The position numbers and the translations under genes are program-made. Below the pieces are notes generated by a model. It saw only the letters and a list, made by a program, of their open reading frames with translations, was not told where the DNA came from and did not search any database. From Thermoplasmatota archaeon (GTDB lineage Archaea; Thermoplasmatota; E2; JACPAO01; JAHFTW01): a stretch of DNA of 64,000 bases. The stretch's first letter is position 1; each line of letters starts with the position of its first letter. Positions 2,950 through 64,000 of this stretch are shown one piece after another. The DNA is taken from positions 8,681 to 72,680 of the forward strand of contig DATLBS010000016.1 in assembly GCA_035526765.1 (NCBI GenBank), in the 5' to 3' direction.

Positions 2950-3225
2950 TCAGGCCGTGAGGGCGCGGGCCTGCAGGAACGTCTTGCCACGCCGGGTGAT
3001 GCGGTAGCGGTCCTCCTTGAGGTCCGCACCGGGGCTGAACACGCGGCACAGCAGGCCGTCATCCACGCATTCGTCCAGGGCGAGGCCGAACCAGGATCCG
3101 ACGTCTGCCGAGGACAGCGCCATCTCCGCTTCCAGGTCATCATAGGTAAGGCCGCCGCGCTGGCGGACCGCATGCAGGATGTTCCAGACCCCGTGCATGA
3201 GTGCGGCAAAGCGTCCCCCAGACAT
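2950..3225 (-). CDS. small putative winged-helix DNA-binding protein (91 aa)
   Basis: ORF MSGGRFAALMHGVWNILHAVRQRGGLTYDDLEAEMALSS...RYRITRRGKTFLQARA has an HTH-like layout with a wing motif (RYRITRRGK). It sits just upstream of the sensor kinase gene. Confidence 0.4.
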   Translation of the reverse strand: MSGGRFAALMHGVWNILHAVRQRGGLTYDDLEAEMALSSADVGSWFGLALDECVDDGLLCRVFSPGADLKEDRYRITRRGKTFLQARALTA

Positions 3226-5714
3226 GTGCGCTGAGGGACAAAACGTTGGGCCCCTGGTCCGCGCTGTCCAATCAAGCAGGCCTTAATCGACCCCGCCATT
3301 GCCACGCCGTGGTGACGGCCCCGGCTCCCAGGCAGGTGACCGCCACCGCGGCCGCGCGCGCCACCGTGCTGGCCTGCGCCCTCCTGACCGCGTCGCTGGC
3401 GGCGCTGGTGCTGGCGGGCTGGAGGCTGGGCTGGCCAGTCCTCACCTCGCTGGCCCCAGGGGGCCCCAGCATGATGGCCACCACGGCCTGGGCGCTCATG
3501 GCCCTCGCCGCAGGCCTCCTGGCCATCCGCAGGGGCCGCTTGCCTGCGGTGAGCCTCATGGCGGGCATCCTGGTGGCCACCTTCGGGATGGCCGTGGCCG
3601 CCGAGTACGCCCTGGGGCTGGACCTCGGCGTGGACGGCTGGGGGTGGCGCATCATGGGCAGCACGCCCCCGCCGTCGCCCCGCATCGCGCCCCTCACCGC
3701 GCTTGGCCTCATCGCCGCCGGCACCGCGACGGCGGCCATGGGGAGCGCGAAGGGACGACGCCTGGGCACGCCGCTTGCCCTGGTGGGAGGCGCCGTGGGG
3801 TTGCTGCAGCTCACCACCGACCTGTACGGCACCCGCGTCCCGGGCCGGAACACGCAGATGGCCGCGCACACCGCGCTGGCGATCCTCCTCCTTGCCATCG
3901 GGCAGCTTTCCCTGCGGCCCCACGAAGGGCGCCTGGCGGTGCTGTGGGGGCGGAGCGAGGCCTCCCGTGTCGCGCGACGGCTGCTGCCGGCGGCGCTGCT
4001 GTCGCCGCTTGCCCTGGGCCTGCCCTTCGCGCTAGCCGTCCGCTCGGGCACGCAGCAGTCCCTCTTCGCGCTCGCCCTCTTCGCGGCCTCGACGGCGGCC
4101 CTCGTGACCTCCGTCGTCTGGGTCGTCATCCTCCACCTCGAGCGCACCGGGGCCGCCCGGGATGCCCTCGTCGAGGCGGACCAGCGCAAGACCGCTCTCC
4201 TCACGGCCATCACGGAGACCACCAGCGACTCGATCTCCGTGAAGGACCTCGACAGCCGGTACGTGTACCTCAACGCCGCTGCGGGCCGGCTGCTGGGCCA
4301 TCCGGCGCAGGACCTGGTCGGGACGGACCTGTCGCAGGTCCTGGACGCGGCCACCCTGGCCCGGGTGCGGGACCAGGAGCGCGGCGTCATCGCGACCGGC
4401 CAGCCGGAGACCCGCGAGCAGGTCATCCCGGTGGACGGCGTGAAGCACCTCCTGCTGACCGAGAAGGCCCCGTACCGCGACCTGCAGGGGCGGATCGTGG
4501 GCACCATCGGGGTGTCCCGCGACATCACCGACCGCAAGAAGGCCGAGGAGGACCTGCGCCGCGCCGAGGAGCGGCTGTCCAAGGTGTTCGAGGCCACCCC
4601 GGTCGGCATCGCCCTCACGCACGCCGACGGCCGCTTCGTCGATGTCAACCCCGCCTTCCAGCAGATCACGGGGCGCACCCGCCACCAGCTCTTGTCCCCC
4701 AGCTTCACGGCGTACCAGCTGTGGGAGGACCCCGCTGACCGGGACCGCATGCTCGCGCAGGTCCGCGGCGGCGCCCTGGTGCGCGGCCACGGCGTCCGCG
4801 CCAAGCGCGCCGACGGCCAGCTGCGCGACCTCGAGGTCTCCATGGACCTTCTGGACGTGGGTGGGGAGACGCTGATCCTCACCATCGCGGCCGACGTCAC
4901 GGACCAGGCCTTGGCCGCGCGCCAGCGCGACGCCCACTCCATGGCCTTGGCGGAGCTCGACCGCCTGCAGCGCATCGAGCAGTTCCGCACCGCCTTCATC
5001 AACACCACTGCGCACGAGCTCGCCACGCCCCTCACGCCCATCCTGATCGACATGCGCCTGCTGGCCGGCCCCGAGGTGGAGTGCCTGCCTGCCCAGCAGC
5101 GGCGCGCGCTGGGCTCCCTGCTGCGCAACATCGAGCGGCTGCGGCAGACGGCGCAGGGCGTGATCGACGCCTCGCGCGTGCAGAGCGCCCAGTTGCGCCT
5201 CGACCTGCAGGACCTCGACGTCGCCACCGCCGTTCGGGACGCCGTGGCGACCCATGCCACCCCCGCGCAGCGCGCCGGCGTCCGCCTGGAGATGCAGCCC
5301 GGAGGGTCGCTGTGCGTGCGGGCGGACCCCGGGCGCCTCGCGCTCATCCTGGGCCACCTGCTGGGGAACGCGCTGAAGTTCACGCCCGCGGGGGGCCGCG
5401 TCGTGGTTGCCTGGGGGCGCCGCGATGGCTTTGCCCGGATCCGCGTGCAGGACACCGGGCCCGGGCTGGACGAGGCGCAGCAGGCGCTGCTCTGGCAACC
5501 CTATTCGCAGGTCCATGACCGCATGCAAAGCAGCGCTGTCGGCAGCGGCCTGGGGCTGTTCGTGAGCAGGAACCTCGTCGCCCTGCACGGCGGCGACGTG
5601 GGGGTCGAGAGCCCCATGCCAGGGGGCGGCAGCACCTTCTGGTTCACGCTGCCCCTGGGCAACGGGGACGCCACCGCCGGAACGGGGGGCCAGCGAGGCC
5701 TGCCCAACACCTAA
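3201..5714 (+). CDS. membrane-anchored multi-PAS sensor histidine kinase (start uncertain; a GTG near 3312 is possible)
   Basis: N-terminal TM helices, PAS repeats, a HisKA H-box (TAHELATPLTPI), and HATPase_c G-boxes (DTGPGLDE, GSGLGLFVSRNLVALHGG). No cognate response regulator lies adjacent. Confidence 0.85.
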   Translation: MRQSVPQTCALRDKTLGPWSALSNQAGLNRPRHCHAVVTAPAPRQVTATAAARATVLACALLTASLAALVLAGWRLGWPVLTSLAPGGPSMMATTAWALMALAAGLLAIRRGRLPAVSLMAGILVATFGMAVAAEYALGLDLGVDGWGWRIMGSTPPPSPRIAPLTALGLIAAGTATAAMGSAKGRRLGTPLALVGGAVGLLQLTTDLYGTRVPGRNTQMAAHTALAILLLAIGQLSLRPHEGRLAVLWGRSEASRVARRLLPAALLSPLALGLPFALAVRSGTQQSLFALALFAASTAALVTSVVWVVILHLERTGAARDALVEADQRKTALLTAITETTSDSISVKDLDSRYVYLNAAAGRLLGHPAQDLVGTDLSQVLDAATLARVRDQERGVIATGQPETREQVIPVDGVKHLLLTEKAPYRDLQGRIVGTIGVSRDITDRKKAEEDLRRAEERLSKVFEATPVGIALTHADGRFVDVNPAFQQITGRTRHQLLSPSFTAYQLWEDPADRDRMLAQVRGGALVRGHGVRAKRADGQLRDLEVSMDLLDVGGETLILTIAADVTDQALAARQRDAHSMALAELDRLQRIEQFRTAFINTTAHELATPLTPILIDMRLLAGPEVECLPAQQRRALGSLLRNIERLRQTAQGVIDASRVQSAQLRLDLQDLDVATAVRDAVATHATPAQRAGVRLEMQPGGSLCVRADPGRLALILGHLLGNALKFTPAGGRVVVAWGRRDGFARIRVQDTGPGLDEAQQALLWQPYSQVHDRMQSSAVGSGLGLFVSRNLVALHGGDVGVESPMPGGGSTFWFTLPLGNGDATAGTGGQRGLPNT

Positions 5715-7486: not shown

Positions 7487-8725
7487 CTAGTTGGCGTCCA
7501 TGGCGCCGCTGCGCGCCATGTCGATCCAGCGCTGCGCCACCGCGGGGGTGACGTCGGTGCCCTGGATGCGGACCTTGCGGCCACGCTCGGCGTCCTTGAC
7601 ACGGCGGGAGACCTCTTCGGCGGTCTCGGCGGCCAGCTGCTTGACGCTCAGGATGCCGGCGGCGACCAGGACCTCGGCGCTCTGGGGGCCGATGCCCTTG
7701 ACGCGGATCAGTTCGGCCATGGCCTGCCACTGCTTCACGAGCTCGGGGGTGGCGCCGATGAGGTTGCCGACCTGGTTGGCGTCGATGGCCAGGAGCTGCG
7801 GGATCGTGATGACGCCGTGCGCGTTGAGGCGGGAGGCGTACGCGGGCCCGATGCCCTCGATGGAGAGGATGTGCTGCTTCTCCTCGCCGGCCACGAACTC
7901 GACCGGCTTCTTGGGGCGGCTGGACTGCACGAGGTTGATGTTCTGGTCCTCGAGCTCGCGCTGCTTGACCAGCAGGAGCGTCTCGCGCTTCTTCAGGGAG
8001 GCCAGCTCGGAGTCGAGGGTCTGGCGCAGGGCGGCCTGCTCCATGTCGCGGCGCTCGATGCCTTCCATGGTCTCGTCGACGCGGATGTTGAGCTTCTTCT
8101 GCCCGGCTTCGAGGACGACGACCTTCTCCTGCAGCTCCTTGAGCAGGGGGGAGTTGACCTTGTCGGCCGTGCGCAGGGCGGTGATGTCCTTGGCCATCGC
8201 GCCGACGTCCGCGACCAGCTTCTCGATCGTGGTGCGGTAGGCGGGCTCGCGGCTGAGGGCCTCGGCGCGGGCCAGGGCGTCGGCGGCGTTCTTGAGGGCC
8301 TGGTTGGAGGCGCGCATGGCGCCGTCGTACATCTGGTCGCGGGCGTTGAACTCCCGCTTCATGGACTCCTTCAGGTCGGCAAGGTCGCGGCGGAGGGCGT
8401 CGCGGAACTCGCGGGAGGCCTCCTCCTCGCCGCGGCGCATGTCGGTCATGCGCTCCTGCTCGGAGGCGAAGAGGTCGCGGACCTGCCGCTCGACGTCGAA
8501 GATGACGCCGATGCGGAACAGGAACAGGACGAGGACGACGGTCACGACGAGGGTGGAGAGCAGCAGGGCACGGCTGAGGGCGCCGATCTCGAAGACGCCG
8601 AGGCCGGGCACGTTGCCGAGGCCCAGGATGAGCGCCGTGACGACGCCGAAGCCGAGGATGATCGCGAGAGCCCGGAAGAACTGGACATTGCGCTTGGCAA
8701 AGTCCCCTGCATCGTTGCCGTCCAT
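7487..8725 (-). CDS. membrane protein with a coiled coil and C-terminal tandem helix-hairpin-helix repeats (DUF4332-like)
   Basis: N-terminal TM segments and a long charged coiled coil. The C-terminus reads EGIGPAYASRLNAHGVITIPQLL ... KQWQAMAELIRVKGIGPQSAEVLVAAGI. A paralog lies at 36613..37719. Confidence 0.65.
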   Translation of the reverse strand: MDGNDAGDFAKRNVQFFRALAIILGFGVVTALILGLGNVPGLGVFEIGALSRALLLSTLVVTVVLVLFLFRIGVIFDVERQVRDLFASEQERMTDMRRGEEEASREFRDALRRDLADLKESMKREFNARDQMYDGAMRASNQALKNAADALARAEALSREPAYRTTIEKLVADVGAMAKDITALRTADKVNSPLLKELQEKVVVLEAGQKKLNIRVDETMEGIERRDMEQAALRQTLDSELASLKKRETLLLVKQRELEDQNINLVQSSRPKKPVEFVAGEEKQHILSIEGIGPAYASRLNAHGVITIPQLLAIDANQVGNLIGATPELVKQWQAMAELIRVKGIGPQSAEVLVAAGILSVKQLAAETAEEVSRRVKDAERGRKVRIQGTDVTPAVAQRWIDMARSGAMDAN

Positions 8726-8800
8726 GGAGCCTCCTAGGCAGGTCTAGGATAAGCGTTTTCCTTCTGGAAACGGCGCGCCGGGGCCGAAGGCCTTTAGTGC

Positions 8801-33272: not shown

Positions 33273-33755
33273 CTACTCATCGGGCGGCGATGGTTTCGGG
33301 CGCAACGCCAGGCCTGCCCGCGCCGCAACGGGGGGGTTGCGCCGGAGGAACGCCAGGATGCTGCGCACGAGGCTGGCGTACCCGGAGGCCGTCGAGGGCT
33401 TCATGAAGTAGCCCGTGGCCTGCGCCAGCAGCGCCTCCCGCTCGTCGTCCGGGTCCTCCGAGGCGGTCAGCACCACGACGGGCCAGCCGTCGAAGTGGCG
33501 GCTCTGGCGGATGCGGTCCACCAGTTCGATGCCGGAGGCGCCCGGCAGGCCGACGTCGATGAGGGCGAAGTCCGGCCAGTCCGCGGAGGACTGGTGCTTC
33601 ATGCGGTCCAGCACACCCCACGCGCGCTCCGCGTCGCCGTACACCTCGAGGCGCGCCGGCACGCCTGCGGCCTCGAACGCATGGGCCAGCAGGCGCTGGT
33701 GCACGACGCTGTCCTCCACCACGAGCACCAGGAGTTCGACCATGCGCTGGCCCAC
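33273..33755 (-). CDS. stand-alone response regulator receiver (CheY-like) protein
   Basis: LVLVVEDSVVHQRLL...ALIDVGLPGASG...VVVLTASED...YFMKP. No output domain. Confidence 0.7.
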   Translation of the reverse strand: MGQRMVELLVLVVEDSVVHQRLLAHAFEAAGVPARLEVYGDAERAWGVLDRMKHQSSADWPDFALIDVGLPGASGIELVDRIRQSRHFDGWPVVVLTASEDPDDEREALLAQATGYFMKPSTASGYASLVRSILAFLRRNPPVAARAGLALRPKPSPPDE

Positions 33756-33829: not shown

Positions 33830-34774
33830 GTGGCAGGCAGGAGCGACGCCCCAGGGTGGGTGGGCCTCGTCCTGGGCGTGGGCCTGGTCTGGGGCCTCAC
33901 GTACGCCCTTTACCCTGTGGGATTGCGGTCCGTGGGCCCCCTGTGGCTGGCGGCGCTGCGCTTCGACACGTTCTGCGCGGGCGCCTTCGTGGCGTGCTGG
34001 GCCGTCGATGGTGGGGTGCGCATCCCCGCGACGTGGCGCGACGCCGCCGCCATCGCCACGTATGCCGGCCTCAACATCGTCCTGCACAACCTCGCCACGA
34101 TCGGCGGGTCCGCGCACGTCCCCGTGGCCGTCCTGGGCATCCTCGCGGGGCTCACGCCGCTCTTGACCGCCGCCCTGTCGCCGCTGGTGCTGCCGCAGGC
34201 CCGGCCATCCCTGCGCCTCGTCGCAGGGCTCCTGGCCGGCTTCGGCGGCGTCGCCGTCCTGACCCTCGCGCGCCCCGGCCCCCTCGACGTCACGGTGTCC
34301 GCATGGACCTTCGTCGTGTTCCTCGGCTTCCTTGCCTGGGCCCTCGGCTCCGTGCTGGTCAAGGCCGCGGCCTCCCCCATGCCCTCCCTGTCGGTCGGGT
34401 TCTGGGCGGCCCTCGTGGCCGTGGCCATCCTGCAGCCGCTGGCCCTAGGGTTGGAGCCGGCGCCGCGTGTTTCGCTCCCCTTGGCAGGCGTCGTCCTCTT
34501 CATCGCGCTCGTGGGCGGCATCGGCGGGTTCCTGGGCTGGATGCGCCTCGTGCGCGGCTTCGGCCCCGCGCACGCAAGCCTCGCGAGCCTCGTGTCGCCG
34601 GCGGTCGCGAGCGTCGCGGCCGCGGCGCTGCTGGGCCAGCCGCTCGGTTGGGCGCACCTCGTGGCCTACGTCCTGGTGGGCCTAGGATTGGTGGCGGCCG
34701 TCCGCGAACTGGCGCACGGCGCGGTCCGCAAGGAGCCTGCGCCTGCACCGGGCGAGGCCGTTGAGATGACCTAG
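33830..34774 (+). CDS. EamA/DMT-superfamily transporter
   Basis: Ten predicted TM helices in two EamA-like halves. Confidence 0.7.
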   Translation: MAGRSDAPGWVGLVLGVGLVWGLTYALYPVGLRSVGPLWLAALRFDTFCAGAFVACWAVDGGVRIPATWRDAAAIATYAGLNIVLHNLATIGGSAHVPVAVLGILAGLTPLLTAALSPLVLPQARPSLRLVAGLLAGFGGVAVLTLARPGPLDVTVSAWTFVVFLGFLAWALGSVLVKAAASPMPSLSVGFWAALVAVAILQPLALGLEPAPRVSLPLAGVVLFIALVGGIGGFLGWMRLVRGFGPAHASLASLVSPAVASVAAAALLGQPLGWAHLVAYVLVGLGLVAAVRELAHGAVRKEPAPAPGEAVEMT

Positions 34775-34962
34775 GTCAGCCCGATGGGCAGGCAGGTCGG
34801 CATCTGCTGGCTGAAGTGGAAGCAGAACAAGGAACCGTTCCAGCAGGGCTGTGTCACGGCGCTGCAGGTGTGGACCAGGGGGTCCGGCTGGGCGGCCGCA
34901 GTGCCGGAGAATCCGACGAAGGCGATGGTGAGGACGAGGCAGGTCAGCAGCAGGGCACGCAT
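34771..34962 (-). CDS. candidate small secreted Cys-rich peptide (63 aa)
   Basis: MRALLLTCLVLTIAFVGFSGTAAA | QPDPLVHTCSAVTQPCWNGSLFCFHFSQQMPTCLPIGLT. A signal peptide precedes a 4-Cys mature region. Lies downstream of and co-oriented with the PAS-UbiA gene. Confidence 0.35.
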   Translation of the reverse strand: MRALLLTCLVLTIAFVGFSGTAAAQPDPLVHTCSAVTQPCWNGSLFCFHFSQQMPTCLPIGLT

Positions 34963-35027: not shown

Positions 35028-36404
35028 CTACGCGAGCCAGACCAGGCCCGCGGCCAGGAGGCAGCCGGCGAAGAAGTGCGCCGCGATGGTGCTGGCGCAG
35101 CCCTTGATGAGGGCGCGGTCGCCGTAGTGCCGGACCGCCATGTAGCCAGCGAAGCCCGCGATGGGAAGGGCCAGCAGCGCCAGGAGGGCCCCGCGGGGCA
35201 GCAGGTGGGTCACCGTGACCTCGACGACGACCGCGGCGAAGGCGGCCGCCACGATGGCGACGTAGCCCCAGCGCGCGTTCTTCGTGCCCAGGGTGGCGAC
35301 GAGGTGGTTCTTGCCGGTGGCCCGGTCGCTGGGGGCGTCGGGGAACTCGTTGATCCACAGGATGGCGAGGGTCAGCAGCCCGATGGGGATGCCCAGCAGG
35401 AAGGAGTCCCAGCCGACGTGGCCCGAGATGCCGTAGACGGCGCCCGCGGTCATGAGGGGCCCGAAGTTGAGGAAGGAGCTGAGCTCGCCCAGGCCGCGGC
35501 GGGCGGCCAGTCGGACCGGCGGCGCCGTGTAGAAGAACCCCATGAGGGCGCCGGCGGCACCGAAGGCGAGGACCAGGGGGCGGCCGAGGACGACGAGGAC
35601 GCCGGCGATGGCCAGCGCGGCGACGATGGCGGCGGTGCCCACCAGGAAGGTGCCCTTCGGGGTGATGAGCCCGAGCTCGATGGCGCGCGAGCCTCCGGTG
35701 AACGGCAGGAAGTAGTCGTTGTTGGCCTCGTCCGTGCCCGACTTGACGTCGAAGTAGTCGTTGAAGACGTTGGCCGCGAGGTGCAGCGCGATGCCGCCCA
35801 GCATGACGAGGGTGAACAGCAGCCAGGGGAACGGGTCCGGGGTGTAGCCCTTCCATGCGGCGAAGGCGGCCGCGACCAGGATGGGCACGAGGGTGGCGGT
35901 CAGGAAGGGCAGGCGCCCGATGACGACGCCCTTGAAGATGCGGGTGCCCAGGGTGGTCTTGGGCATGATGGTGGCCGGGTCGACGCCGGGCAGTTCGGTG
36001 GTGTAGCCGCAGTAGCCCGTCTGGACGCCCGAGGCCTTGCCGCCCTTGTAGGTGGGCGTGATGCGGGCGTGCGCGGCGAACCGCGTGCCGTCCTTGCGGA
36101 CGAAGACGGTGTCGCCCTCGAAGGCGCCCTTCGTGCGGGCCTCCTTGAGCCAGCGCGGGACGTGGCCCAGGACGACCTCGCCAGGGCTGAACAGGCTCAC
36201 GCGCTTCTTCCCAACGACCTCCTCGGCCGTGTACTGGAAGATCTGGTGGGCGCCGTCGTTGAAGGTCTCGATGCGGCCCTCCATGTCGCAGGTGATGACG
36301 GAGACGGGGGCCTTGGCGGCCGGCTTGGCGGTCTCGATGGAGACCTGGGGGGCGGGCGCCTTGCGGGCTGGCCTTGCGGCACGGGTGGGGGTGGCCTTCG
36401 GCAT
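35028..36404 (-). CDS. N-terminal PAS domain fused to a UbiA-superfamily prenyltransferase (MenA-like, 1,4-dihydroxy-2-naphthoate polyprenyltransferase-type motif)
   Basis: Internal ATG MPKATPT. PAS segment VITCDMEGRIETFNDGAHQIFQYTAEEVVGKKRVSLFSP...FVRKDGTRFAAHARITP. Then 8-9 TM helices with NVFNDYFDVKSGTDEANN (NDxxDxxxxxD, as in MenA NDYGDAVKGSD). Confidence 0.7.
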   Translation of the reverse strand: MPKATPTRAARPARKAPAPQVSIETAKPAAKAPVSVITCDMEGRIETFNDGAHQIFQYTAEEVVGKKRVSLFSPGEVVLGHVPRWLKEARTKGAFEGDTVFVRKDGTRFAAHARITPTYKGGKASGVQTGYCGYTTELPGVDPATIMPKTTLGTRIFKGVVIGRLPFLTATLVPILVAAAFAAWKGYTPDPFPWLLFTLVMLGGIALHLAANVFNDYFDVKSGTDEANNDYFLPFTGGSRAIELGLITPKGTFLVGTAAIVAALAIAGVLVVLGRPLVLAFGAAGALMGFFYTAPPVRLAARRGLGELSSFLNFGPLMTAGAVYGISGHVGWDSFLLGIPIGLLTLAILWINEFPDAPSDRATGKNHLVATLGTKNARWGYVAIVAAAFAAVVVEVTVTHLLPRGALLALLALPIAGFAGYMAVRHYGDRALIKGCASTIAAHFFAGCLLAAGLVWLA

Positions 36405-36612
36405 GCTCTCAGGTCCCTTGGACAGGAGGGGACACATAAGCGCCACCGTTGGAAACAACTTGCCGGGAGTTGTAAGGGACTCGCGACGTCCGCCCACCCA
36501 CGGCCCCGAATGGAGAACGGAACCCGAAACCTGCAGGCAAGGGGACAGAGCTCACTCTGGTATCTGTGTCCTCGGGGGCTGGGCAGGAGTGTTGGGGAGG
36601 CGGTTGGATGGG

Positions 36613-37719
36613 CTACTGCGCCGGTTCCTTGAGGCGGACGCGCTTCATGCCCTCGGCCGCCTTCTTCCAGCCCTCGACGCGGGCCTCGGTGATCTTGATG
36701 CCGACCACCGTGGTCTCGAGCGAGTCGAGGTAGTCGTTGACCTGCTGCGTGACGGTGGAGGCGGCGCGGCGCTTGAGGGCCGCGATGCCGTCGATGCCGC
36801 TGCGGGCCAGGGCCTCCGCGTACTGGGGGCCGATCCCCTTCACCTTGACCAGCTCGGCCATGGCCTGCCACTGCTGGACGGTCTTGATGGGCACGCCGAC
36901 CTTGCTGGCCAGCTTGGCCGCGTCCTCGAAACACAGGCGCGCTGTCGTGTGGATGCCGGCCGCGCGCAGCTTGTCGCCGTAGATGGCGCCAATCCCCTCG
37001 ATGTCCTCGACAGGGTGGACGTCGCCCGGGTAGTCGTAGTACGCCCGCTCCGTGGGCACCGCGACGCGGGCAGGCCGGGCCACGCGTTCCTGCAGCTGCT
37101 GCACGAACTGGCGACCGTCGGCGGCCTTCCCCGTGGCGGGCACGCTGCCGTCCCGCTTCCGGGAAGACGGGAAAAGCTTGGAGCGGTAGGGTTCGGGCAC
37201 GTCGTCCGGGCCCAGCTGGGGGCGCGCCGGCACCGCCTGCTGGCCCTGCAGGGGCAGCTGCGCCGCGCCGTCGGGGCCGGCCAGGAGGGTGCGCATCTTG
37301 AGGGTCGTGCCGCCCGCGTCGACGCGGATGTAGTCGTTCGTGTAGACGGCCCGCTCCACGGGCCGGGGGTACGTGTAGGCCACCGTGTCCTGGCGCTCGG
37401 TGGGCTGCCAGGAACGGTACGCGGTGGTCACCGTGGGGATGTCGTACACGACGACGTCGGGGCCCATGCGGGGCGTGGGCTTGGCAAGGTGGGCGTGCTG
37501 GGTGGCGCGCATCTCCTCGGTGACCTCGAGGGCCTGGAACTCGATGGCCTGGGCATCCGCGGCGGGATCCGTCGCCCATTGCGCGGGCTGCGCCCCGGCC
37601 TGCATGGCGCCGGCGCGACGGCGGCGGCCCGACTGGGCAAGGACCAGGACCAGCAGGAACACGACGAGGACGCCCAGGGCGACCAAGGAAGCGACAAGGG
37701 TGGGGTCCAGGGCGGCCAT
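36613..37719 (-). CDS. paralogous membrane protein with tandem helix-hairpin-helix repeats (DUF4332-like)
   Basis: Internal ATG MAALDPTLVASLVALGVLVVFLLVLVLA (TM). C-terminus reads IEGIGAIYGDKLRAAGIHTTARLC...QQWQAMAELVKVKGIGPQYAEALARSGI, near-identical in motif to 7487..8725. Confidence 0.65.
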   Translation of the reverse strand: MAALDPTLVASLVALGVLVVFLLVLVLAQSGRRRRAGAMQAGAQPAQWATDPAADAQAIEFQALEVTEEMRATQHAHLAKPTPRMGPDVVVYDIPTVTTAYRSWQPTERQDTVAYTYPRPVERAVYTNDYIRVDAGGTTLKMRTLLAGPDGAAQLPLQGQQAVPARPQLGPDDVPEPYRSKLFPSSRKRDGSVPATGKAADGRQFVQQLQERVARPARVAVPTERAYYDYPGDVHPVEDIEGIGAIYGDKLRAAGIHTTARLCFEDAAKLASKVGVPIKTVQQWQAMAELVKVKGIGPQYAEALARSGIDGIAALKRRAASTVTQQVNDYLDSLETTVVGIKITEARVEGWKKAAEGMKRVRLKEPAQ

Positions 37720-37745
37720 ATCAGGAGTTCCAAGGAGGGGCCGGT

Positions 37746-43582: not shown

Positions 43583-44803
43583 TCAGGCAAGCGTGTCGAG
43601 GGTGCGCGCTGCGGAGGCGCCGACGCGCTCACGGTCCGCCTTGGGGGTGAACACCCAGGCCCGCCAGTGGTCCATGCGGGCCTCCTCCAGGACCTTGACG
43701 AGGCGGCTGGCCACCGGCAGGGGCACGAGGTCGCCGTCGCGCTGGCGGACCTGCAGCCGCATCTCGCGGAACTTGGGCGGGTGGGGCACGTCCAGCAGCA
43801 CCAGGCCCTCGTCGACGCCCGCGTCCTGGGCGATCTCGGCAGCAAGGCGCCGGCGTTCGCGGGGCCGGTCGCTGAGGCGCAGCAGGGCCGCCGTGTTGGG
43901 CTGGTCGGGGCGGCCCTCGTAGGCGCGCTTGAACAGGCGGCGGTCCTCCAGGCGGGCGACCAGGGCCGCGGGCCCTCCGCCGCCGGCGCGCAGCCGCTGC
44001 AGCAGGCCGTCGTCGGTCTCGCGCTCCAGCTCGTGCAGCCGGACGCCGGTGGCCTCGATGTGGCCGCGCACCGCGGCCTGCAGCATCGATTCGCTGCTGC
44101 GCACCGTGTGGTGCAGGTACACGGCAGGGTACATCAGGAACCGCGTGGTGAGGATGGCCTCGGCCGCGATGAGGCCGGACTCGTCCAGCACGACGGCGGG
44201 GCCGTCGGGGGAGTCGCCCGCGCGCAGGACCTCGATGAGGCGGTCCGCGTCCACGGCCGTGCGCACGCCGGTGTAGTGGGCGTCACGCAGGAGGTAGTCG
44301 AGGCGGTCGGCATCGAGGCTGCCGCTCACGATGGGGGCCAGGGGTCCCTTGCCGCCGATGCACTCCGCGACGGCCAGGGGGTCGAGTCCTGCCTGCCTGA
44401 GGGGATCCGCCAGCGGGCCCCACCCGACGAGGTCCATGCTGGCCTGCTCGTGGCGGCGGCCCTCCTCCTTCACGAGTTCCTCGAAGGCGTGGCTGAACGG
44501 GCCGTGGCCGACGTCGTGCAGGAGGGCGGCGGCGCGCACCGTGTTGGCCTCCCATTCCCCCAGGCCCAGTGCCTTGGCGAAGCGGCCCGCGAGGTGGTGG
44601 GCGCCAAGGCTGTGCTCGAAGCGCCGGTGGTGCGCACCCGGGTAGACGAGGTGGGCGGTGCCCAGCTGGTGGATGCGGCGCAGGCGCTGCACGACGGCCG
44701 AGTCGACCAGCGGCAGGGCCCAGTCGTCGATGCGGATCGAGCCGTGGATGGGGTCGCGCACCGTGATGGGCAACGGCGGGGCCAAGGCCCCGCCCGTCAT
44801 CAA
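43583..44803 (-). CDS. HD-domain phosphohydrolase (dGTPase/COG1078-like)
   Basis: RFEHSLGAHHLAGRFA...AALLHDVGHGPFSH. ATGA overlap with the upstream membrane protein gene. Confidence 0.75.
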   Translation of the reverse strand: MMTGGALAPPLPITVRDPIHGSIRIDDWALPLVDSAVVQRLRRIHQLGTAHLVYPGAHHRRFEHSLGAHHLAGRFAKALGLGEWEANTVRAAALLHDVGHGPFSHAFEELVKEEGRRHEQASMDLVGWGPLADPLRQAGLDPLAVAECIGGKGPLAPIVSGSLDADRLDYLLRDAHYTGVRTAVDADRLIEVLRAGDSPDGPAVVLDESGLIAAEAILTTRFLMYPAVYLHHTVRSSESMLQAAVRGHIEATGVRLHELERETDDGLLQRLRAGGGGPAALVARLEDRRLFKRAYEGRPDQPNTAALLRLSDRPRERRRLAAEIAQDAGVDEGLVLLDVPHPPKFREMRLQVRQRDGDLVPLPVASRLVKVLEEARMDHWRAWVFTPKADRERVGASAARTLDTLA

Positions 44804-46488: not shown

Positions 46489-46559
46489 ATCGGGGGACGG
46501 GGCCTTAACGGTTCAGGTGGGGATGGGGGGACGGCAGGTCGGCGAGGCCCCGCCGCCGA

Positions 46560-53760: not shown

Positions 53761-53893
53761 GACGCAGGACCAGAAGCAAGCCATCGACAGCCAATGAACG
53801 GTCCTCGGTGCCCTGGAGACCCTGAGGCCTTGCGATGCACGCTCCGGAACGGTTTCGCTCTCCTTATCCATCGGAGAGGAGTCGGCAGCCCCC

Positions 53894-58517: not shown

Positions 58518-58886
58518 GGTCAGGTTCCGGGGCGCGTTTCCCGATGCAGAAGCACCAAGGTTGTCCGCGCCCGACCTGCCTTCCTCCCCCCCGTCCGACT
58601 TAATCGACCATCGTAGCCCTTATTGGGGACAACGGACCCGCGGGAATTCCCATATCAGTGTTCCCCCTCGCCGCGCCTGCCTCCCTTCTTATATAGCGCC
58701 CAGGGACGGAGCGCTGGTGTCCATCCCAGCGGGTCTGCATCTCCCGGAACGCCCCCCGCAGCAAGCCCACAGACGCTGAAGCCACGCACCCTTTTCCGGT
58801 CCAGACCAGCCGGAGCCCCCGGGGTGCCGCACTGACATCTGCGGGCCCTGCCCACCCCTGAAGCCTCAAGTAGTCCGTGGACGAAG

Positions 58887-59699
58887 GTGGAGTGGTCCCC
58901 ATCCGGGGGCACGGAGCTGGTCCACATCAAAGACAAGGTCCTCATCGTCGACGACGAACCCGATGTCCTGGAGAGCACGGCCCTCCTCGTGGAGGCCCTG
59001 GGCTACCAGGCCATCCGCCTGTCGGACCCCGCCGAGATCCTCGAGACCGTCGAGCAGGAGCAGCCCGGCATCCTGCTGCAGGACCTCAAGATGCCCGGCC
59101 TCAACGTGGCCGGCCTTGTCGCCGCCCTACGGCTGAACCCCCTCACAGCGGAGGTCCCATTGGTCTTCTTCAGCGCCGGCGGCGACCTGCCAACGACCGC
59201 GGCCCGCTATGACGCGTGGGGCTACCTCGCCAAGCCCTTCGGGAAGGAGGAGCTCGCCCGCCTGCTCAACCAGGTCCTCGGGGCTCCCGCCAAGCGCACC
59301 GGACCCTGGCAGGGCCGCGACATGCAGCGCGAGGTCCGCAGCGTCTTCCACGACTACTGGAACCTGCTGGCCGCCCTCAGCAACTACATCCTCATCCTCG
59401 ACCGCGCCAAGGGCCTGAGCGCCGAGGCCCAGAAGTCGGTGCGCGGACTCGACGAGATCATCCTCAAGCTCGAGTCGAAGACCGACCGCCTCAGCGCCTA
59501 CATCATGGCCCTCGTCGGCAGCATCGAGCCCGTCCCCGTCGCCCAGACGGCGACGCAGGCCCGCGGCGGCCGCTCCGGCGGCTCCGAGGGCGGCGACACC
59601 GGCCGCGCGTCCGGCCCCGGCCGCTCCGGCGGCACGGGCGGCAGCGGCTCGGGCCGTGTGTCCGGGCCTGGCAAGGACGACAACACGCCCACGGCGTGA
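58887..59699 (+). CDS. response regulator receiver protein with an uncharacterised C-terminal region and a Gly/Ser/Arg-rich tail (non-ATG start per track)
   Basis: KVLIVDDEPDVLE...ILLQDLKMPGLNG...LVFFSAGGD...GYLAKPF. C-terminal tail RGGRSGGSEGGDTGRASGPGRSGGTGGSGSG. Confidence 0.7.
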   Translation: MEWSPSGGTELVHIKDKVLIVDDEPDVLESTALLVEALGYQAIRLSDPAEILETVEQEQPGILLQDLKMPGLNVAGLVAALRLNPLTAEVPLVFFSAGGDLPTTAARYDAWGYLAKPFGKEELARLLNQVLGAPAKRTGPWQGRDMQREVRSVFHDYWNLLAALSNYILILDRAKGLSAEAQKSVRGLDEIILKLESKTDRLSAYIMALVGSIEPVPVAQTATQARGGRSGGSEGGDTGRASGPGRSGGTGGSGSGRVSGPGKDDNTPTA

Positions 59700-60410: not shown

Positions 60411-62570
60411 CTACGGCCAGGTCGTCGTGCCCGAGGTCGCGACGGAGCCCGTCGTCGAGGTGGCCCGGAACTGGACCTGCGCGCCATGGTCCACGTGCAT
60501 GGACTTGGCCCACGTGCCCCAGTCGGTCTTGGCGAGGGCGATCCAGCTGCCGCCGTTGACGCGGGCATCGACGGAGCCCACCGGCTCGCCGTTGGAGGTC
60601 ACTGTGACCTCGACCCACCACTCGTTGATGTTCTTCGACACCGTGAAGGTGGGCGAGAAGCCCGAGGGCGGGCTCGTCGTCGTGCCGCTGGTGGTGGTCG
60701 ACGTCGTGGTCGTCGTGCTGCTGGTGGTGGTGGTCGTGCCGCCGCCCGGGCAGGTGACCAGGGTCGCGTCCGTGTTGGAGGGCGGGATCCACTGCCTGCA
60801 CGAGCTCAGGTCCGCGCTGCCGGCGGTGCCGGTGGCGCGCATCTGGACGATGGTGCCCTGCGTGATGTGGTACGAGGCGGCCCAGCCTCCCCAGGACTGC
60901 TTGGTCAGGGGCTGGAACGGTCCCCAGGCCCCGTTGTAGAGGCGGACCTCGACCTTGGCCAGGGGCTCGCCGTTGGTGGCCACGTTGGCCTGCACCCACC
61001 ACTCGTTGCCGCGGAAGGCCGTGAAGGTGGCGTCGAAGGCACCGGAGGGCGGGGGCGGGGGCGGGGGCGGCGGCGGAGGCGGGGGCGGCGGGGGCGTGCC
61101 CTGGCCACCGGTCAGCGTGGGGTAGGGCAGGTGCGGGTACACGGAGTTGTAGGCCACGTGCGTGTCGAAGACCAGGACGCCGCCGCCGCTGACGGTGGAG
61201 TCGCCGGCGCCGACCTCGACGACCCACTGCATGGTGCCGGTGCCCCAGAGGTCCGCGAGGATGGGGGCGCGGCTGACCTTCCAGTGCGTGGTCGGCACGA
61301 AGGCCTCCTTGGCGCCGGTGCGGGAGTCGAGGTACCAGATGCCGTCGCCGCCGGTGCCGGGGCCGTTGGCAAGGACTTCCTGGACGCCGTCGCCGTCGAC
61401 GTCGCCGAGGGTGAGGTCCTTGTTGCTCCAGTACGTGTTCAGGCTCTGCTTCCAGACCAGGTTGCCCTGGCCGTCGTAGCGGTAGAAGTTGCCAGGCCCG
61501 GTGACGTCCCAGTCGTACTGGGGGTCGATGCCGCCCTTGTGGCCGATCGTGTTCCAGTCGGCCCAGTAGATCTCGTTGCGGCCGTCGTGGTCGGCGTCCA
61601 CGATGACGGGGTGCGTGTAGGTCAGCGGATTGCCGCCGTTGACGTCCTGCTTGGCCCAGAGCACGGAGCCGCCCGTGCTGAAGGCGATCAGCAGCGCGTG
61701 GTCGTTCTCGAAGTTCGTGGTGTCGTGCGAGTCGCGGGCGCCGACGATGAAGTCGAGGCCGCCGGAGCCATCGATCTGGCCGATGGCGCCGCCGACGGGC
61801 ATGGCGCCCGACCGGAGGTTGTAGTGAGCGGTGACCGAGTAGCTCCAGCGGGTGGCGCCGGTGCGGCCGTTGAGCTGTGTGACGACGCCGCCGTCGGAGT
61901 TGAACATGACCTCGGGGTAGCCGTCACCGTCCATGTCGCCGGGCACCATCTCGGTGTTGCCGCCACCGATGCACTTCTTCCAGTACAGGCTGCCGTCCTG
62001 GCGCAGGGCGTAGAGGCCGGACTCCTCGGTGCTGCCAAGGATCTCGTAGCGGCCGTCGCGGTCGAGGTCGACCAGGACGGGCTTGGAGTCGGAGCCGGGG
62101 TTGGAGTAGCAGTCGCTGAGGCGGCGCTCCCATTCCTTGACGAAGGAGAAGTGGCCGGTGGTGCTGCCTCCGGGGTTGAAGCGGTACGAGGTGACGTAGG
62201 CGGCCGAGTTCTGGAGGACGATGCGGACGGTGCCGGCGGAGTCGAACACCGCGGCCTCGGGTCCGTTGAAGGTGCGGGCGCCCCAGCTGGAGGGGAACGT
62301 CGTCTTGAGCTCCGCCAGGATGGCGCCCGTCTTGGAGTCGAAGACGTACGCGTACTGGTTGTCGTTCTGGGCGATGATCTCCTTCCGGCCGTCGCCGTTG
62401 AAGTCGAAGACCTTGGGGGGGTTGCCGTCGAAGTTGCGGAACGGCACGGTGGGGTGCGCCGTGTTGGTCCAGATCGTGAGGGATTGGGTGGTTGCGGCCT
62501 CGGCGCCTCCCAGCATGGCGACGAACACCAGCGGGAGCACGAAGAGGGCGGTTGCTGCAAGCGCCTTCAT
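60411..62570 (-). CDS. secreted FG-GAP/VCBS-repeat beta-propeller protein with a poly-Pro linker and two C-terminal WWVE-type modules
   Basis: Signal peptide MKALAATALFVLPLVFVAMLGGAEA. Repeated FG-GAP Ca-binding loops (FDFNGDGRKEII, VDLDRDGRYEIL, GDMDGDGYPEVM, VDADHDGRNEIY, GDVDGDGVQEVL). P16 linker, then FDATFTAFRGNEWWVQANV... and FSPTFTVSKNINEWWVEVTV.... Confidence 0.8.
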   Translation of the reverse strand: MKALAATALFVLPLVFVAMLGGAEAATTQSLTIWTNTAHPTVPFRNFDGNPPKVFDFNGDGRKEIIAQNDNQYAYVFDSKTGAILAELKTTFPSSWGARTFNGPEAAVFDSAGTVRIVLQNSAAYVTSYRFNPGGSTTGHFSFVKEWERRLSDCYSNPGSDSKPVLVDLDRDGRYEILGSTEESGLYALRQDGSLYWKKCIGGGNTEMVPGDMDGDGYPEVMFNSDGGVVTQLNGRTGATRWSYSVTAHYNLRSGAMPVGGAIGQIDGSGGLDFIVGARDSHDTTNFENDHALLIAFSTGGSVLWAKQDVNGGNPLTYTHPVIVDADHDGRNEIYWADWNTIGHKGGIDPQYDWDVTGPGNFYRYDGQGNLVWKQSLNTYWSNKDLTLGDVDGDGVQEVLANGPGTGGDGIWYLDSRTGAKEAFVPTTHWKVSRAPILADLWGTGTMQWVVEVGAGDSTVSGGGVLVFDTHVAYNSVYPHLPYPTLTGGQGTPPPPPPPPPPPPPPPPSGAFDATFTAFRGNEWWVQANVATNGEPLAKVEVRLYNGAWGPFQPLTKQSWGGWAASYHITQGTIVQMRATGTAGSADLSSCRQWIPPSNTDATLVTCPGGGTTTTTSSTTTTTSTTTSGTTTSPPSGFSPTFTVSKNINEWWVEVTVTSNGEPVGSVDARVNGGSWIALAKTDWGTWAKSMHVDHGAQVQFRATSTTGSVATSGTTTWP

Positions 62571-62924
62571 GGCCGATGGCTCCGTCCCCACGTGCATAAG
62601 GCCGCAGGGACACGTTGGCGGTCCAACAGAAGGGGCCGCACATCTACGGAGGCGCCCGGCCATCGATGCCGGGGTTTGCCGGACAGTCGCGAGCCAGAGC
62701 CTGACCGCATCGCCACGCAACAAGGAACCGCGTGTGGCACGGCCGGCCCGTGGCGCCAGGCCACTCGCCCGGCAGGCCCCGGAAAGCCAGGCCCTGGGCC
62801 CTGAGGCCAGTTGTCGTACGCCTCTCGCGGCCGTCGCCGCGCCTCCGGGAATCCGCCTTGCGTCAGGCCCAGGAGGCCGGCTCGCCGCAGGTTGGACCGG
62901 AAAAGGGGAAGGTGGCGAGGCGCC

Positions 62925-64000
62925 TCAGTGGGCCCGCAGGGCGGAGGCCGAGCCCGGCCATGGCGCATCGTAGGCGGCATCCAGGTCGAACACGAGGAGG
63001 GCCCCCTTGCGGGAGCCGTCCAGGGGCTCGACGGGGAAGACCAACTGCATCTTGCCGTCATGCCGCAGCTCGTGCAGCACGGGCCCGCGGCTCATCTTCC
63101 AGTCCTCCAGGGGCAGGAACGCCTCGGCGGAGCCGGTGGCGGCGGAGAGCCGCCAGATGCCGTCGTAGCCGCCGCCGGGGCCGTTGGCGAGGATGGAGTA
63201 GGAGCCGTCGCCGTCCAGGTCCACGACCGCGATGTCCCGGTTGCTCCACCAGGCGTCGATCTCGCGCACCCAGACGTCGTTGCCGGCGTCGTCGAGGCGG
63301 AAGGCGTGCGCCGGGCCCAGCCGCTCCCAGTTGCCGGGGCGGTGGCCGATCGTGTTCCAGTCCATCCCGAAGATGTCCATGCGGCCGTCGCCGTCCACGT
63401 CGACGACCGCCAGCTGGGTGTAGCTCAGCGGGTTCGCCCACTGGGGCTGGCGCATCCACACCAGCTCGCCCTGGCCGCCCGCGCCGCCATGGATGGCGAA
63501 GACCGCCATGTGGTCGTTGGCGAAGGTATCCGGTTGCCCCGGTGGCGCGTACCGCGCCACGTAGAGGATCTCCTTCTGGCCCTGGCCGTCGAGGTCCGCC
63601 ACGGTGACCTGGGTGGGGATGGCGGCCGGCGTGATCCCGGCGGAGCGCGAGTCGTACGTCCACCGGGTCGCGCCAGTCTTGGCATCGAGCACGGCGACGA
63701 CGCCGTTGTCGCCGGCCACGATGGCCTCGGCATGCCCGTCGCCGTCCAGGTCGGCCACGGCGGGGGCCCCGTTGCCTCCTGTCCAGCACTGCTTCCACTG
63801 CGTGGCGCCGTCGGCGCGCAGGCCGAAGGAGCCGCCGTCCTCCGTCTGCACGATGATGAGCTTCTCGCCGCCGCCGACGTCGGCGATGGAGGCCTTGGCG
63901 TCCATGCCGGGGCTGCGCACGCATTCCGTCATGCGGCGCTCGAAGGTCTTCGTGAACTCGAAGTGGTCCTCCGTGCTCTTGGCGGCGTCGTAGCGCCACG
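62925..64000 (-). CDS. paralogous FG-GAP-repeat protein; the 5' part extends beyond the window end and it lacks the C-terminal modules
   Basis: The frame stays open to the window edge (…HFEFTKTFERRMTECVRSPG…) and parallels the HFSFVKEWERRLSDCYSNPG region of 60411..62570. Contains ADLDGDGHAEAIV, VDVDGDGRMDIF and VDLDGDGSYSIL. Confidence 0.7.
   Translation of the reverse strand, partial: WRYDAAKSTEDHFEFTKTFERRMTECVRSPGMDAKASIADVGGGEKLIIVQTEDGGSFGLRADGATQWKQCWTGGNGAPAVADLDGDGHAEAIVAGDNGVVAVLDAKTGATRWTYDSRSAGITPAAIPTQVTVADLDGQGQKEILYVARYAPPGQPDTFANDHMAVFAIHGGAGGQGELVWMRQPQWANPLSYTQLAVVDVDGDGRMDIFGMDWNTIGHRPGNWERLGPAHAFRLDDAGNDVWVREIDAWWSNRDIAVVDLDGDGSYSILANGPGGGYDGIWRLSAATGSAEAFLPLEDWKMSRGPVLHELRHDGKMQLVFPVEPLDGSRKGALLVFDLDAAYDAPWPGSASALRAH

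Follow-up and report, generated by a model that had tools for sequence, protein, structure and literature searches.

The gene analysed here encodes a PAS domain joined to a UbiA-fold membrane prenyltransferase. Judged by its homologues, this fusion is a large, coherent and widespread conserved family and not a peculiarity of one genome. The reading we prefer, at a probability of roughly 45%, is that the protein may be a MenA-like, quinone-type prenyltransferase under allosteric control, exerted through TM1 by a ligand-binding PAS domain. The enzyme would be a MenA-like (1,4-dihydroxy-2-naphthoate-type) intramembrane aromatic prenyltransferase, most likely placing a long polyprenyl chain on the naphthoquinone head group of a respiratory quinone during its synthesis. 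The PAS domain would be permanently tethered in the cytoplasm, on the side of the membrane where the active site lies, with a short helix leading to TM1. Its input would be either the binding of a small ligand, hydrophobic or aromatic in nature, or a redox change, and the signal would pass to the helix ahead of TM1 and TM1 itself and/or to the mobile cytoplasmic cap loops. Prenyl transfer would be switched on or off, and the size of the quinone pool would be set post-translationally.

The 458-residue product was 100% identical to HUR61759.1 (NCBI, Ca. Thermoplasmatota). Its AlphaFold2 (AF2) model was of high confidence (pLDDT 90, pTM 0.85) and comprised a full PAS fold with all five strands, a single amphipathic helix and nine TM helices, in agreement with the eight to nine TM helices of a UbiA fold claimed from the sequence alone. 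In the predicted topology the N-terminus lies in the cytoplasm, and the two Asp motifs sit where TM2 and TM6 reach the cytoplasmic face. The N-terminus of most homologues aligned just ahead of the PAS domain. Within the linker, DSSP assigned a short helix at residues 143–146 and a pre-TM1 helix at 152–163; the alignment of unfused relatives began near this linker, at profile positions ~125–135. Features are listed in Table 1.

Table 1. Coordinates of the fusion gene, its predicted parts and the neighbouring small ORF (positions in the analysed stretch of DNA)
Feature	Residues	Position	Strand	Basis or remarks
PAS-UbiA (MenA-like) fusion, complete CDS	458 aa + stop	35028..36404	(-)	ORF list, NCBI match
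N-terminal tail, Lys/Ala/Pro-rich, predicted disordered, lineage-specific	1-33	36306..36404	(-)	pLDDT 50-64
PAS domain, five beta strands and four helices	34-137	35994..36305	(-)	Pfam/NCBIfam, AF2 DSSP, pLDDT 92-98
Linker joining PAS I-beta strand to TM1	138-164	35913..35993	(-)	AF2 DSSP, pLDDT 92-98
UbiA-fold membrane prenyltransferase, nine TM helices, with stop codon	165-458	35028..35912	(-)	Pfam UbiA, NCBIfam MenA, UBIAD1 8djk, hhalign
First Asp-rich motif, N212-x2-N215-D216-x2-D219-x3-G223-x-D225, predicted prenyl-diphosphate/Mg2+ site, cytoplasmic TM2 end	212-225	35730..35771	(-)	Invariant in 64 family members
GGSR motif, G237-G238-S239-R240, closing a 6-residue insertion in loop HL2-3, subfamily marker	237-240	35685..35696	(-)	Invariant in family and unfused relatives
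Second Asp-rich motif, N352-x3-D356-x3-D360-x3-G364-K365, loop HL6-7	352-365	35310..35351	(-)	Invariant columns
ORF with signal-peptide-like N-terminus and 5 Cys	63 aa	34771..34962	(-)	In-frame GC3 0.92

The N-terminal region was recognised as a PAS domain by Pfam PAS_9 (E 4e-10, 40.3 bits against a cutoff of 27), Pfam PAS (23.6 against 22.6 bits) and the NCBIfam sensory_box model TIGR00229 (31.5 against 22.9), as the sequence-only reading had anticipated. DSSP of the AF2 model gave the order E35-40, E44-48, H50-56, H60-63, H69-72, H75-92, E95-102, E108-120, E127-137, which is the sheet-plus-helices PAS topology (strands A, B, G, H and I; helices C–F). By fold, Foldseek matched the domain to 3lyx, NifL, Aer, FixL and LOV proteins with target-normalised TM-scores of 0.68–0.82.

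The combination of the two domains was found throughout the family. All of the best 120 homologues were colinear PAS+UbiA proteins, 54–100% identical and 410–465 aa long except for one partial entry of 329 aa. A relative was encoded by 197 GTDB species genomes, with carriers in Anaerolineae, Myxococcota and Thermoplasmatota, including MGII/MGIII, and the family formed about 24–30 clusters at 50% identity. The architecture had been called uncommon; this holds for its frequency, ~0.1% of GTDB species representatives, and does not hold for its breadth. In a neighbour-joining tree of UbiA domains, which had long branches and carried no support values, PAS-bearing sequences occupied a few neighbouring clades together with scattered cases. 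The wider subfamily was more varied. No N-terminal domain was present in 92 of 134 representatives of close relatives, a marine Euryarchaeota variant placed an EF-hand pair ahead of the PAS domain, and sister enzymes carried other N-terminal domains (PNPOx-like) at the PAS position. The unfused or otherwise fused enzymes with the GGSR motif (for example P0152, P0156, and the PNPOx-like+MenA-like protein of Nitrososphaerales, P0151/HEY4699032.1) reached 220–270 bits when their UbiA part was scored with the family profile, and shared the PF(S/T)GGSR motif. Unlike the fusion protein they lacked PAS, and some had an FMN-binding-split-barrel-like or unknown N-terminal domain in its place.

Mean pairwise identity in the PAS-UbiA family was 0.71 for the PAS domain and 0.61 for the membrane domain, and ~28 PAS positions were invariant across archaea and bacteria. 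By this measure, constraint is stronger on the PAS domain than on the enzyme domain. Such constraint bears on the strongest rival explanation, which we consider rather unlikely: that the enzyme is the same MenA-like prenyltransferase, and the PAS domain a constitutive structural module for dimerisation, for docking of a partner enzyme, or for capture and presentation of a soluble aromatic substrate. That the PAS domain is better conserved than sensor PAS domains usually are, and better than the catalytic domain, agrees with a structural role, as would the confident, fixed arrangement of the domains in the predicted model (pTM 0.85) and a PAS domain with no cofactor signature. The unrelated ligand-binding fold that takes the PAS position in sister enzymes, a PNPOx-like split barrel, fits substrate handling. 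However, most close relatives manage without any N-terminal domain, the EF-hand+PAS variant resembles stacked regulatory inputs, and PAS domains are overwhelmingly regulatory. We count the EF-hand+PAS and PNPOx-like variants, which may reflect a modular regulatory logic, in favour of a sensor.

The membrane domain scored 102.3 bits against Pfam UbiA (PF01040; cutoff 34.2, E 3.4e-29), and Foldseek matched it to UBIAD1, AfUbiA, ApUbiA and DGGGPS. The best-scoring NCBIfam models for the catalytic part were those for MenA. E. coli MenA (b3930; TIGR00751/PRK06080) has the same nine-TM UbiA fold, and hhalign aligned it at a probability of 98.6%, with both Asp-rich motifs, the YT..P...GLGE loop and the N...D...D...GK..L motif in register residue for residue, at 26% identity. 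In that alignment NDYFDVKSGTD (N215-D225) faced NDYGDAVKGSD, and the second motif, NEFPDAPSDRATGK (N352-K365), faced NNLRDINSDRENGK. Residues N215, D216, D219, D225, D356 and D360 of these motifs were invariant in the family. The MenA-type spacing ascribed to the first motif was identical to that of E. coli MenA (N-D-x-x-D-x-x-x-G-x-D). The ensuing G-P-x-R loop differed: in the fusion protein it held a 6-residue insertion and GGSR, aligned to GPLR, and the insertion and the PF(S/T)GGSR motif are hallmarks of the subfamily. The PAS domain, the linker helix, the insertion and GGSR in HL2-3 are features of the fusion protein that E. coli MenA lacks. All MenA equivalog cutoffs were missed (TIGR00751, 81.6 against 102.15; NF004751, 122.5 against 264; TIGR02235, 118 against 225), and because of this we limit the MenA assignment, as against other UbiA clades, to the subfamily level. 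The MenA identity proposed earlier is partly supported in this sense: the catalytic part appears MenA-like, with MenA models scoring best, and falls short of the equivalog.

The nearest solved structure was UBIAD1, the animal menaquinone-4 synthase (PDB 8djk/8djm), with a profile E of 4.6e-18, a target-normalised Foldseek TM-score of 0.79 and 21% identity to the fusion protein. UBIAD1, a member of the MenA clade, also has a regulatory role, sensing GGPP and binding HMG-CoA reductase, as described in two reports (PMC7069719, PMC8641950). It differs from the fusion protein in having no fused sensor; its regulation runs through its own catalytic domain and a partner protein.

Eighty genome loci of homologues were inspected for context. 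No men or mqn genes occurred within the 64-kb window (the whole stretch of DNA analysed), nor in most related loci, so that the fusion gene also differs from E. coli MenA in having no men-gene context. No conserved operon partner was found over the 80 loci, and no neighbour family was common to more than 14 of them. The top neighbour 'clusters' over these loci proved to be shadow ORFs inside the PAS-UbiA gene. A long-chain-type polyprenyl synthase (E-L-I-H-T-A-S-L-L-H-D-D) adjoined the gene in about 11 of the 80 loci, frequently in the order polyprenyl_synt-MarR-PAS-UbiA. Since no PNPOx/CREG-like split-barrel gene lay near PAS-UbiA in any of the 80 loci, a split-barrel neighbour in MGII is probably incidental.

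These results also bear on the nature of the acceptor. It is unlikely, in our judgement, that the GGSR subfamily is not a menaquinone enzyme at all and instead prenylates another acceptor (an aromatic or quinol compound, a pigment or a lipid head group), with the PAS domain controlling or presenting that substrate. The missed equivalog cutoffs, the absence of men/mqn linkage in the window and in most related loci, and the placement of the insertion and GGSR in HL2-3, a cap loop that shapes the acceptor site, would be in keeping with such a change of substrate. Yet MenA models were clearly the top matches, several unfused members of the same subfamily passed the TIGR00751 menA cutoff, Nitrososphaerales members carry a MenA annotation, and the adjoining polyprenyl synthases belong to the long-chain type that makes quinone tails.

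Signatures of known PAS cofactors were then compared with the domain. The best PAS sequence matches were Aer, NifL and MmoS (PDB 8dik, 2gj3 and 3ewk; all FAD-binding) and 3lyx (ligand unknown), which were also among the best by fold and shared with it a G-K-x element, the F-alpha Trp (W85) and an R-K-D-G turn. FAD binding was not supported, because these matches were weak (E 0.004–0.014). The FAD-contact residues were also replaced, only the F-alpha Trp being shared: in HMMER alignments the Aer RHPD element aligned with F72-S73-P74-G75, and the flavin Asn of NifL and LOV proteins was the invariant F101. No heme signature of the FixL/EcDOS type, with an invariant F-alpha proximal His, was found. 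H81 was nearly invariant in the core family; divergent members have N, P, S, E or V at this position, and for this reason it was rejected as a heme ligand. The candidate ligand residues C39, C132, H81 and W85 as a group were not kept in the most divergent family members. Control of the enzyme by a blue-light (LOV) or heme/O2-sensing PAS domain is highly improbable. The fold does resemble the LOV, FixL and EcDOS PAS domains (Foldseek), and by manual alignment H81, in F-alpha, falls close to where FixL has its proximal histidine, but H81 is substituted in many family members, the flavin-binding Asn is lost, and the E-alpha segment lacks the adduct Cys, reading KKRVSLFS (within G-K-K-R-V-S-L-F-S) where LOV domains have GRNCRFLQ (signature GxNCRFLQ, with a flavin Asn/Gln). 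Light-dependent control, which the sequence-only reading had raised alongside redox and ligand control, is accordingly not supported, and for heme or FAD, the cofactors that it proposed checking for in the PAS pocket, no signature was found.

The gene model itself was secure. An ORF ran from a GTG at 36497 (35028..36497 on the minus strand). GC3 was uniformly 0.97 within the fusion gene and only 0.65 in the in-frame 5′ extension 36405–36497, which makes ATG 36404, the start taken in the sequence-only reading, the likely one. No stop codon or frameshift was found inside the gene, so it is not two genes split by a missed stop; with the PAS models above cutoff as well, neither of the refuting conditions named in the sequence-only reading was borne out. 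Nothing was found in favour of an artefact, in which errors of sequencing or assembly would have merged neighbouring PAS and MenA genes or the PAS-like stretch would have arisen by chance, and it can be set aside, given the continuous frame with GC3 of 0.97 throughout, the PAS scores over cutoff, the confident two-domain AF2 model, and the same architecture in all of the best 120 homologues and in 80/80 inspected loci from independent assemblies. The small Cys-rich ORF reported downstream on the same strand does exist, and its coding-like GC3 makes a genuine small gene probable. It had no Pfam or NCBIfam match, and no significant tblastn match was found beside PAS-UbiA homologues in related loci. 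On these comparisons it is not a conserved partner of PAS-UbiA, and no functional link is supported.

For the allosteric reading, then, we count the two folds and their confident model, linker included, the N-in topology, the intact motifs, the MenA affinity, the conservation of the PAS domain, the TM1/TM9 portal, the modular N-terminal domains and the polyprenyl synthase linkage. Against it we count the missed equivalog cutoffs, the lack of men/mqn linkage in the window and in most related loci, the lack of a PAS cofactor signature, and candidate ligand residues that the most divergent members lack. What we infer in this model is which substrate is used, whether a PAS ligand exists and what it is, and by what route the allosteric signal travels. 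The portal enters the model because, in UbiA-fold enzymes, the lateral opening for exit of the lipid product is bordered by TM1 and TM9 (PMC11047366).

Precedents for control of this pathway lie elsewhere. MenD of M. tuberculosis and S. aureus is subject to allosteric feedback inhibition by DHNA (PMC9835592). Like the proposed PAS control, this feedback limits the redox-active quinone pool; unlike it, it acts at another pathway step, on a soluble enzyme whose allosteric site lies in the catalytic protein, with no fused sensor. We found no other post-translational control of menaquinone synthesis described. In ArcB, quinone-dependent oxidation of cysteines in a cytoplasmic, membrane-adjacent PAS domain makes that domain responsive to the quinone pool. 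The core PAS-UbiA family likewise has two conserved PAS cysteines, C39 and C132, though ArcB is a histidine kinase and the PAS-UbiA cysteines are missing in divergent members; a redox switch built on this pair was downgraded for that reason. A search of the literature found no report of a UbiA-superfamily membrane prenyltransferase with a sensor domain, nothing relevant on PAS+UbiA or PAS+MenA fusions, and nothing usable on carriers among papers on Thermoplasmatota or MGII quinone pathways.

If the PAS domain were only structural, the outcome would be a modest annotation refinement, and the protein would best be named 'PAS domain-containing MenA-like prenyltransferase' and not MenA. Should the PAS domain act as a switch, the family would offer a tractable model for a soluble sensor gating an intramembrane enzyme, an unrecognised control point of respiratory quinone pools, and a natural template for ligand-controlled prenyltransferases. 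A bolder proposal, which we put forward tentatively, is that a covalently attached sensor may gate this enzyme, which would make it the first such case in the UbiA superfamily. Here the PAS domain would read a quinone-, DHNA- or redox-related signal and open or close the TM1/TM9 portal or the cap, with EF-hand+PAS and PNPOx-like domains as interchangeable input modules. Such gating would act directly and post-translationally on respiratory quinone pools across the abundant uncultured lineages that the family spans: marine group II/III archaea, other Thermoplasmatota, Anaerolineae and Myxococcota.

The fusion is encoded by one minus-strand open reading frame (36497 to 35028 in the ORF listing). 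Its product from the ATG at 36404, a protein of 458 aa used here for all residue numbering, is a 100% match to NCBI HUR61759.1, recorded as 'UbiA family prenyltransferase [Candidatus Thermoplasmatota archaeon]'. This ATG is the likely translation start, since GC3 drops to 0.65 in the in-frame stretch upstream, compared with 0.97 within the gene. In Pfam, residues ~33–123 scored above the cutoffs for PAS_9 (40.3 vs 27 bits) and PAS (23.6 vs 22.6), and the C-terminal 290 residues above that for UbiA (102 vs 34 bits); the NCBIfam 'sensory_box' PAS model also exceeded its own cutoff. The sequence-only reading of a PAS domain and a UbiA-type prenyltransferase in one gene, with the motif NDYFDVKSGTD (N215–D225), was therefore confirmed. 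Its reservation that the PAS region might escape PAS HMMs, or that two genes or a frameshift might underlie the model, fails, the latter because the colinear order occurred in 120/120 best homologues and 80/80 genome loci inspected. A gene-model artefact is thereby excluded.

An AlphaFold2 model made from a 64-sequence family alignment is confident (mean pLDDT 90, pTM 0.85). From the PAS I strand the chain leads straight into TM1 by way of a linker and a helix that are themselves modelled with confidence. The only internal low-confidence segments are loops HL2-3 (about 221–240) and HL4-5 (about 291–310), where the conserved loop motifs fall when E. coli MenA is aligned. The model shows the N-terminus, hence the PAS domain, on the cytoplasmic side, and the two Asp-rich motifs where TM2 and TM6 end on that side, so that PAS domain and active site share a membrane face.

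Features of the PAS-UbiA protein, of the window and of related loci
Feature	Position	Strand	Description
Disordered tail	first 33 residues		AlphaFold2 model
Complete PAS fold	residues 35–137		five strands, C–F helices; AlphaFold2 model
Short helix	residues 143–146		AlphaFold2 model
Pre-TM1 helix	residues 152–163		AlphaFold2 model
Nine transmembrane helices	UbiA part		AlphaFold2 model
Motif alignment			E. coli MenA NDYGDAVKGSD; PAS-UbiA family NDYFDVKSGTD
Motif alignment			E. coli MenA YTVGN-RPYGYIGLGD; PAS-UbiA family YTAPPVRLAARRGLGE
Motif alignment			E. coli MenA NNLRDINSDRENGKNTLVV; PAS-UbiA family NEFPDAPSDRATGKNHLVA
Second Asp-rich motif	N352–K365
Small Cys-rich ORF	34771..34962	(-)	63 aa, MRALLLTCLVLTIAFVGFSGTAAAQPDPLVHTCSAVTQPCWNGSLFCFHFSQQMPTCLPIGLT; signal-peptide-like start
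EamA transporter	33830..34774	(+)	convergent
Response regulator	33273..33755	(-)	single domain, REC only
DUF4332 paralogues	36613..37731; 7487..8743	(-)	C-terminal DUF4332 + helix-hairpin-helix domain
Histidine kinase	3201..5714	(+)	PAS-PAS-HisKA-HATPase
Second REC-domain protein	58836..59699	(+)
FG-GAP/beta-propeller repeat proteins	60411..63998	(-)	two, large, neighbouring; window end
Long ORFs, good GC3, no Pfam match	e.g. 44800–46512, 56880–58619, 53798–54739		several
EF-hand+PAS+UbiA gene	10001–11626 of L092/L093
MarR-family gene directly upstream of PAS-UbiA	L005/L031 266–3316, L023, L028, L049, L052, L062, L076, L082, L083, L085, L090		Myxococcota and a few others

The best family matches of the protein were MenA models, above those of the chlorophyll synthase, heme o synthase, UbiA and DGGGP-synthase types, and all MenA equivalog cutoffs were missed (e.g. 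TIGR00751, 81.6 vs 102.15). A profile-profile comparison with E. coli MenA, covering TM2 to the C-terminus, gave a probability of 98.6% at 26% identity. Relative to that enzyme, the family has six extra residues in loop HL2-3, closed by an invariant GGSR in place of GPLR. Among solved structures the nearest is that of the animal MenA-clade enzyme UBIAD1 (profile E 4.6e-18, Foldseek target-normalised TM-score 0.79). When 1.84 billion representatives were searched exhaustively with a profile, the matches were about two dozen clusters (at 50% identity) of full-length fusions and, below them, hundreds of unfused enzymes of ~300 aa that match the UbiA part only (220–270 bits). These unfused relatives have the PF(S/T)GGSR motif in common with the fusions, and several pass the TIGR00751 menA cutoff. 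The catalytic domain is therefore placed in a 'GGSR' subfamily of its own, on the margin of MenA. Prenylation of DHNA or naphthoquinol is the most probable predicted chemistry; a different acceptor for the subfamily as a whole is a less likely rival. We class the protein as a predicted MenA-clade-like prenyltransferase and do not count it among the MenA equivalogs, since the tests of the curated cutoffs and of pathway context both came out negative.

The window is one of archaeal housekeeping genes (TBP, RNA polymerase subunit L, Cbf5, TruD, CTP synthase, SerRS, aIF2-beta, S15, Kae1/Bud32), and no men or mqn genes were found within its 64 kb. In Thermoplasmatota the upstream order Kae1, Bud32, Ham1, DUF4332/HHH protein, PAS-UbiA is kept, and the downstream side differs. 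The DUF4332 protein adjacent in the window (36613..37731) is the kept upstream neighbour in L001, L008, L009 and L010. A homologue of the REC-only protein directly follows PAS-UbiA in L010 and sits about 5 kb beyond it in L008, the closest relative locus, where a PAS histidine kinase is encoded two genes downstream of PAS-UbiA; in the window the Cys-rich ORF and the EamA gene intervene. No family of neighbouring genes recurred in more than 14 of the 80 loci. The only informative linkage was to a trans-polyprenyl synthase, adjoining PAS-UbiA in about 11/80 loci, with the order polyprenyl_synt-MarR-PAS-UbiA in Myxococcota. These synthases have small residues at -4/-5 before the first DDxxD (E-L-I-H-T-A-S-L-L-H-D-D), the pattern of the long-chain, quinone-tail type. 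Such a synthase is near in the MarR loci, in several just upstream of MarR, and this arrangement looks like a small operon.

The small Cys-rich ORF, which the sequence-only reading had set beside the fusion, is present and has coding-type GC3 (0.92). This suggests that it is translated and probably yields a genuine secreted or membrane peptide specific to the lineage. It shares 4 nt with the 3' end of the EamA gene. Pfam and NCBIfam gave no family match for it, a search of related loci gave no homologue, and no evidence ties it to the prenyltransferase. Among relatives whose sequence continues downstream, the two closest have other genes after PAS-UbiA, one a glyoxalase-family gene and the second a response regulator gene.

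Foldseek matched the PAS fold to 3lyx, NifL, Aer, EcDOS, FixL and LOV. The best solved sequence relatives were the FAD-PAS sensors Aer, NifL and MmoS, and 3lyx, all weak (E 0.004–0.014). None of the known FAD, LOV or heme determinants looked for was found. The Aer R-H-P-D motif is replaced by F72-S73-P74-G75, the flavin-contacting Asn of NifL/LOV by invariant F101, and the LOV cysteine position falls within K-K-R-V-S-L-F-S, which has no Cys. H81, the sole candidate heme ligand, is substituted in many divergent members. Light or heme sensing is thus largely excluded. C39 (A strand) and C132 (I strand) are kept in the core family and not in distant members. Across the 64-sequence family of archaea and bacteria, mean pairwise identity was 0.71 for the PAS domain, 0.61 for the membrane domain and 0.49 for the linker, with about 28 invariant PAS positions. 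Such conservation is striking and, for a sensor PAS domain, unusual; it points to constraint on the pocket, to a fixed interface between PAS domain and enzyme, or to both.

Scanning one genome per GTDB species with a sequence pattern revealed relatives in 197 genomes. The best 80 all had the full two-domain span, were nearly all from MAGs, and came mainly from Anaerolineae and other Chloroflexota, from Myxococcota and from Thermoplasmatota (a MGIII Poseidoniales MAG among them), with a few from Gammaproteobacteria. Archaeal and bacterial members are still 51–59% identical, which suggests transfer between Archaea and Bacteria. Other GGSR enzymes bear different domains at the PAS-equivalent position: a PNPOx-like FMN-binding split-barrel ('general stress protein 26'; P0151, P0159, P0216; ~505–516 aa; one cluster named from a Nitrososphaerales archaeon, HEY4699032.1), or domains of 130–190 aa with no assigned identity (P0167, P0146, P0220, P0239). 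In marine Euryarchaeota (Tara Oceans; P0123/P0290, 541–551 aa, 57 cluster members) an EF-hand pair precedes PAS and UbiA. Their loci have EamA and CYTH upstream and, downstream, a convergent CREG/PNPOx-like split-barrel+DUF2470 gene, flavodoxin and a methyltransferase; no split-barrel neighbour occurred in the 80 GTDB loci. In a rough, low-confidence neighbour-joining tree, PAS-bearing sequences fell in a few adjoining clades plus scattered cases, and the other extensions were dispersed among unfused enzymes.

We infer that the PAS domain gates prenyl transfer. On ligand binding or a redox shift it would change state, and the change would pass through the pre-TM1 helix, much as the LOV J-alpha helix transmits signals, to TM1 and/or the cap loops. 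Candidate signals would be the pathway's own aromatic intermediate, the quinone/quinol product or cellular redox state. In UbiA-fold enzymes TM1 and TM9 border a lateral portal, thought to be the exit of the prenylated product, and its opening by substrate binding has been proposed (PMC11047366). MenD is feedback-controlled by DHNA (PMC9835592), so a control of this kind makes biological sense for the pathway. The regulatory role is hypothetical, and the PAS domain may be a constitutive structural or substrate-presenting module. The repeated gain of ligand-binding domains, and of an EF-hand stacked on PAS, has the look of modular regulatory input. Databases name these proteins 'UbiA family prenyltransferase' or '1,4-dihydroxy-2-naphthoate octaprenyltransferase', and no mention of a PAS-UbiA/MenA fusion was found in the literature searched. 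Both the architecture and the degree to which it is conserved are solid findings, and they would somewhat surprise a specialist in quinone biosynthesis.
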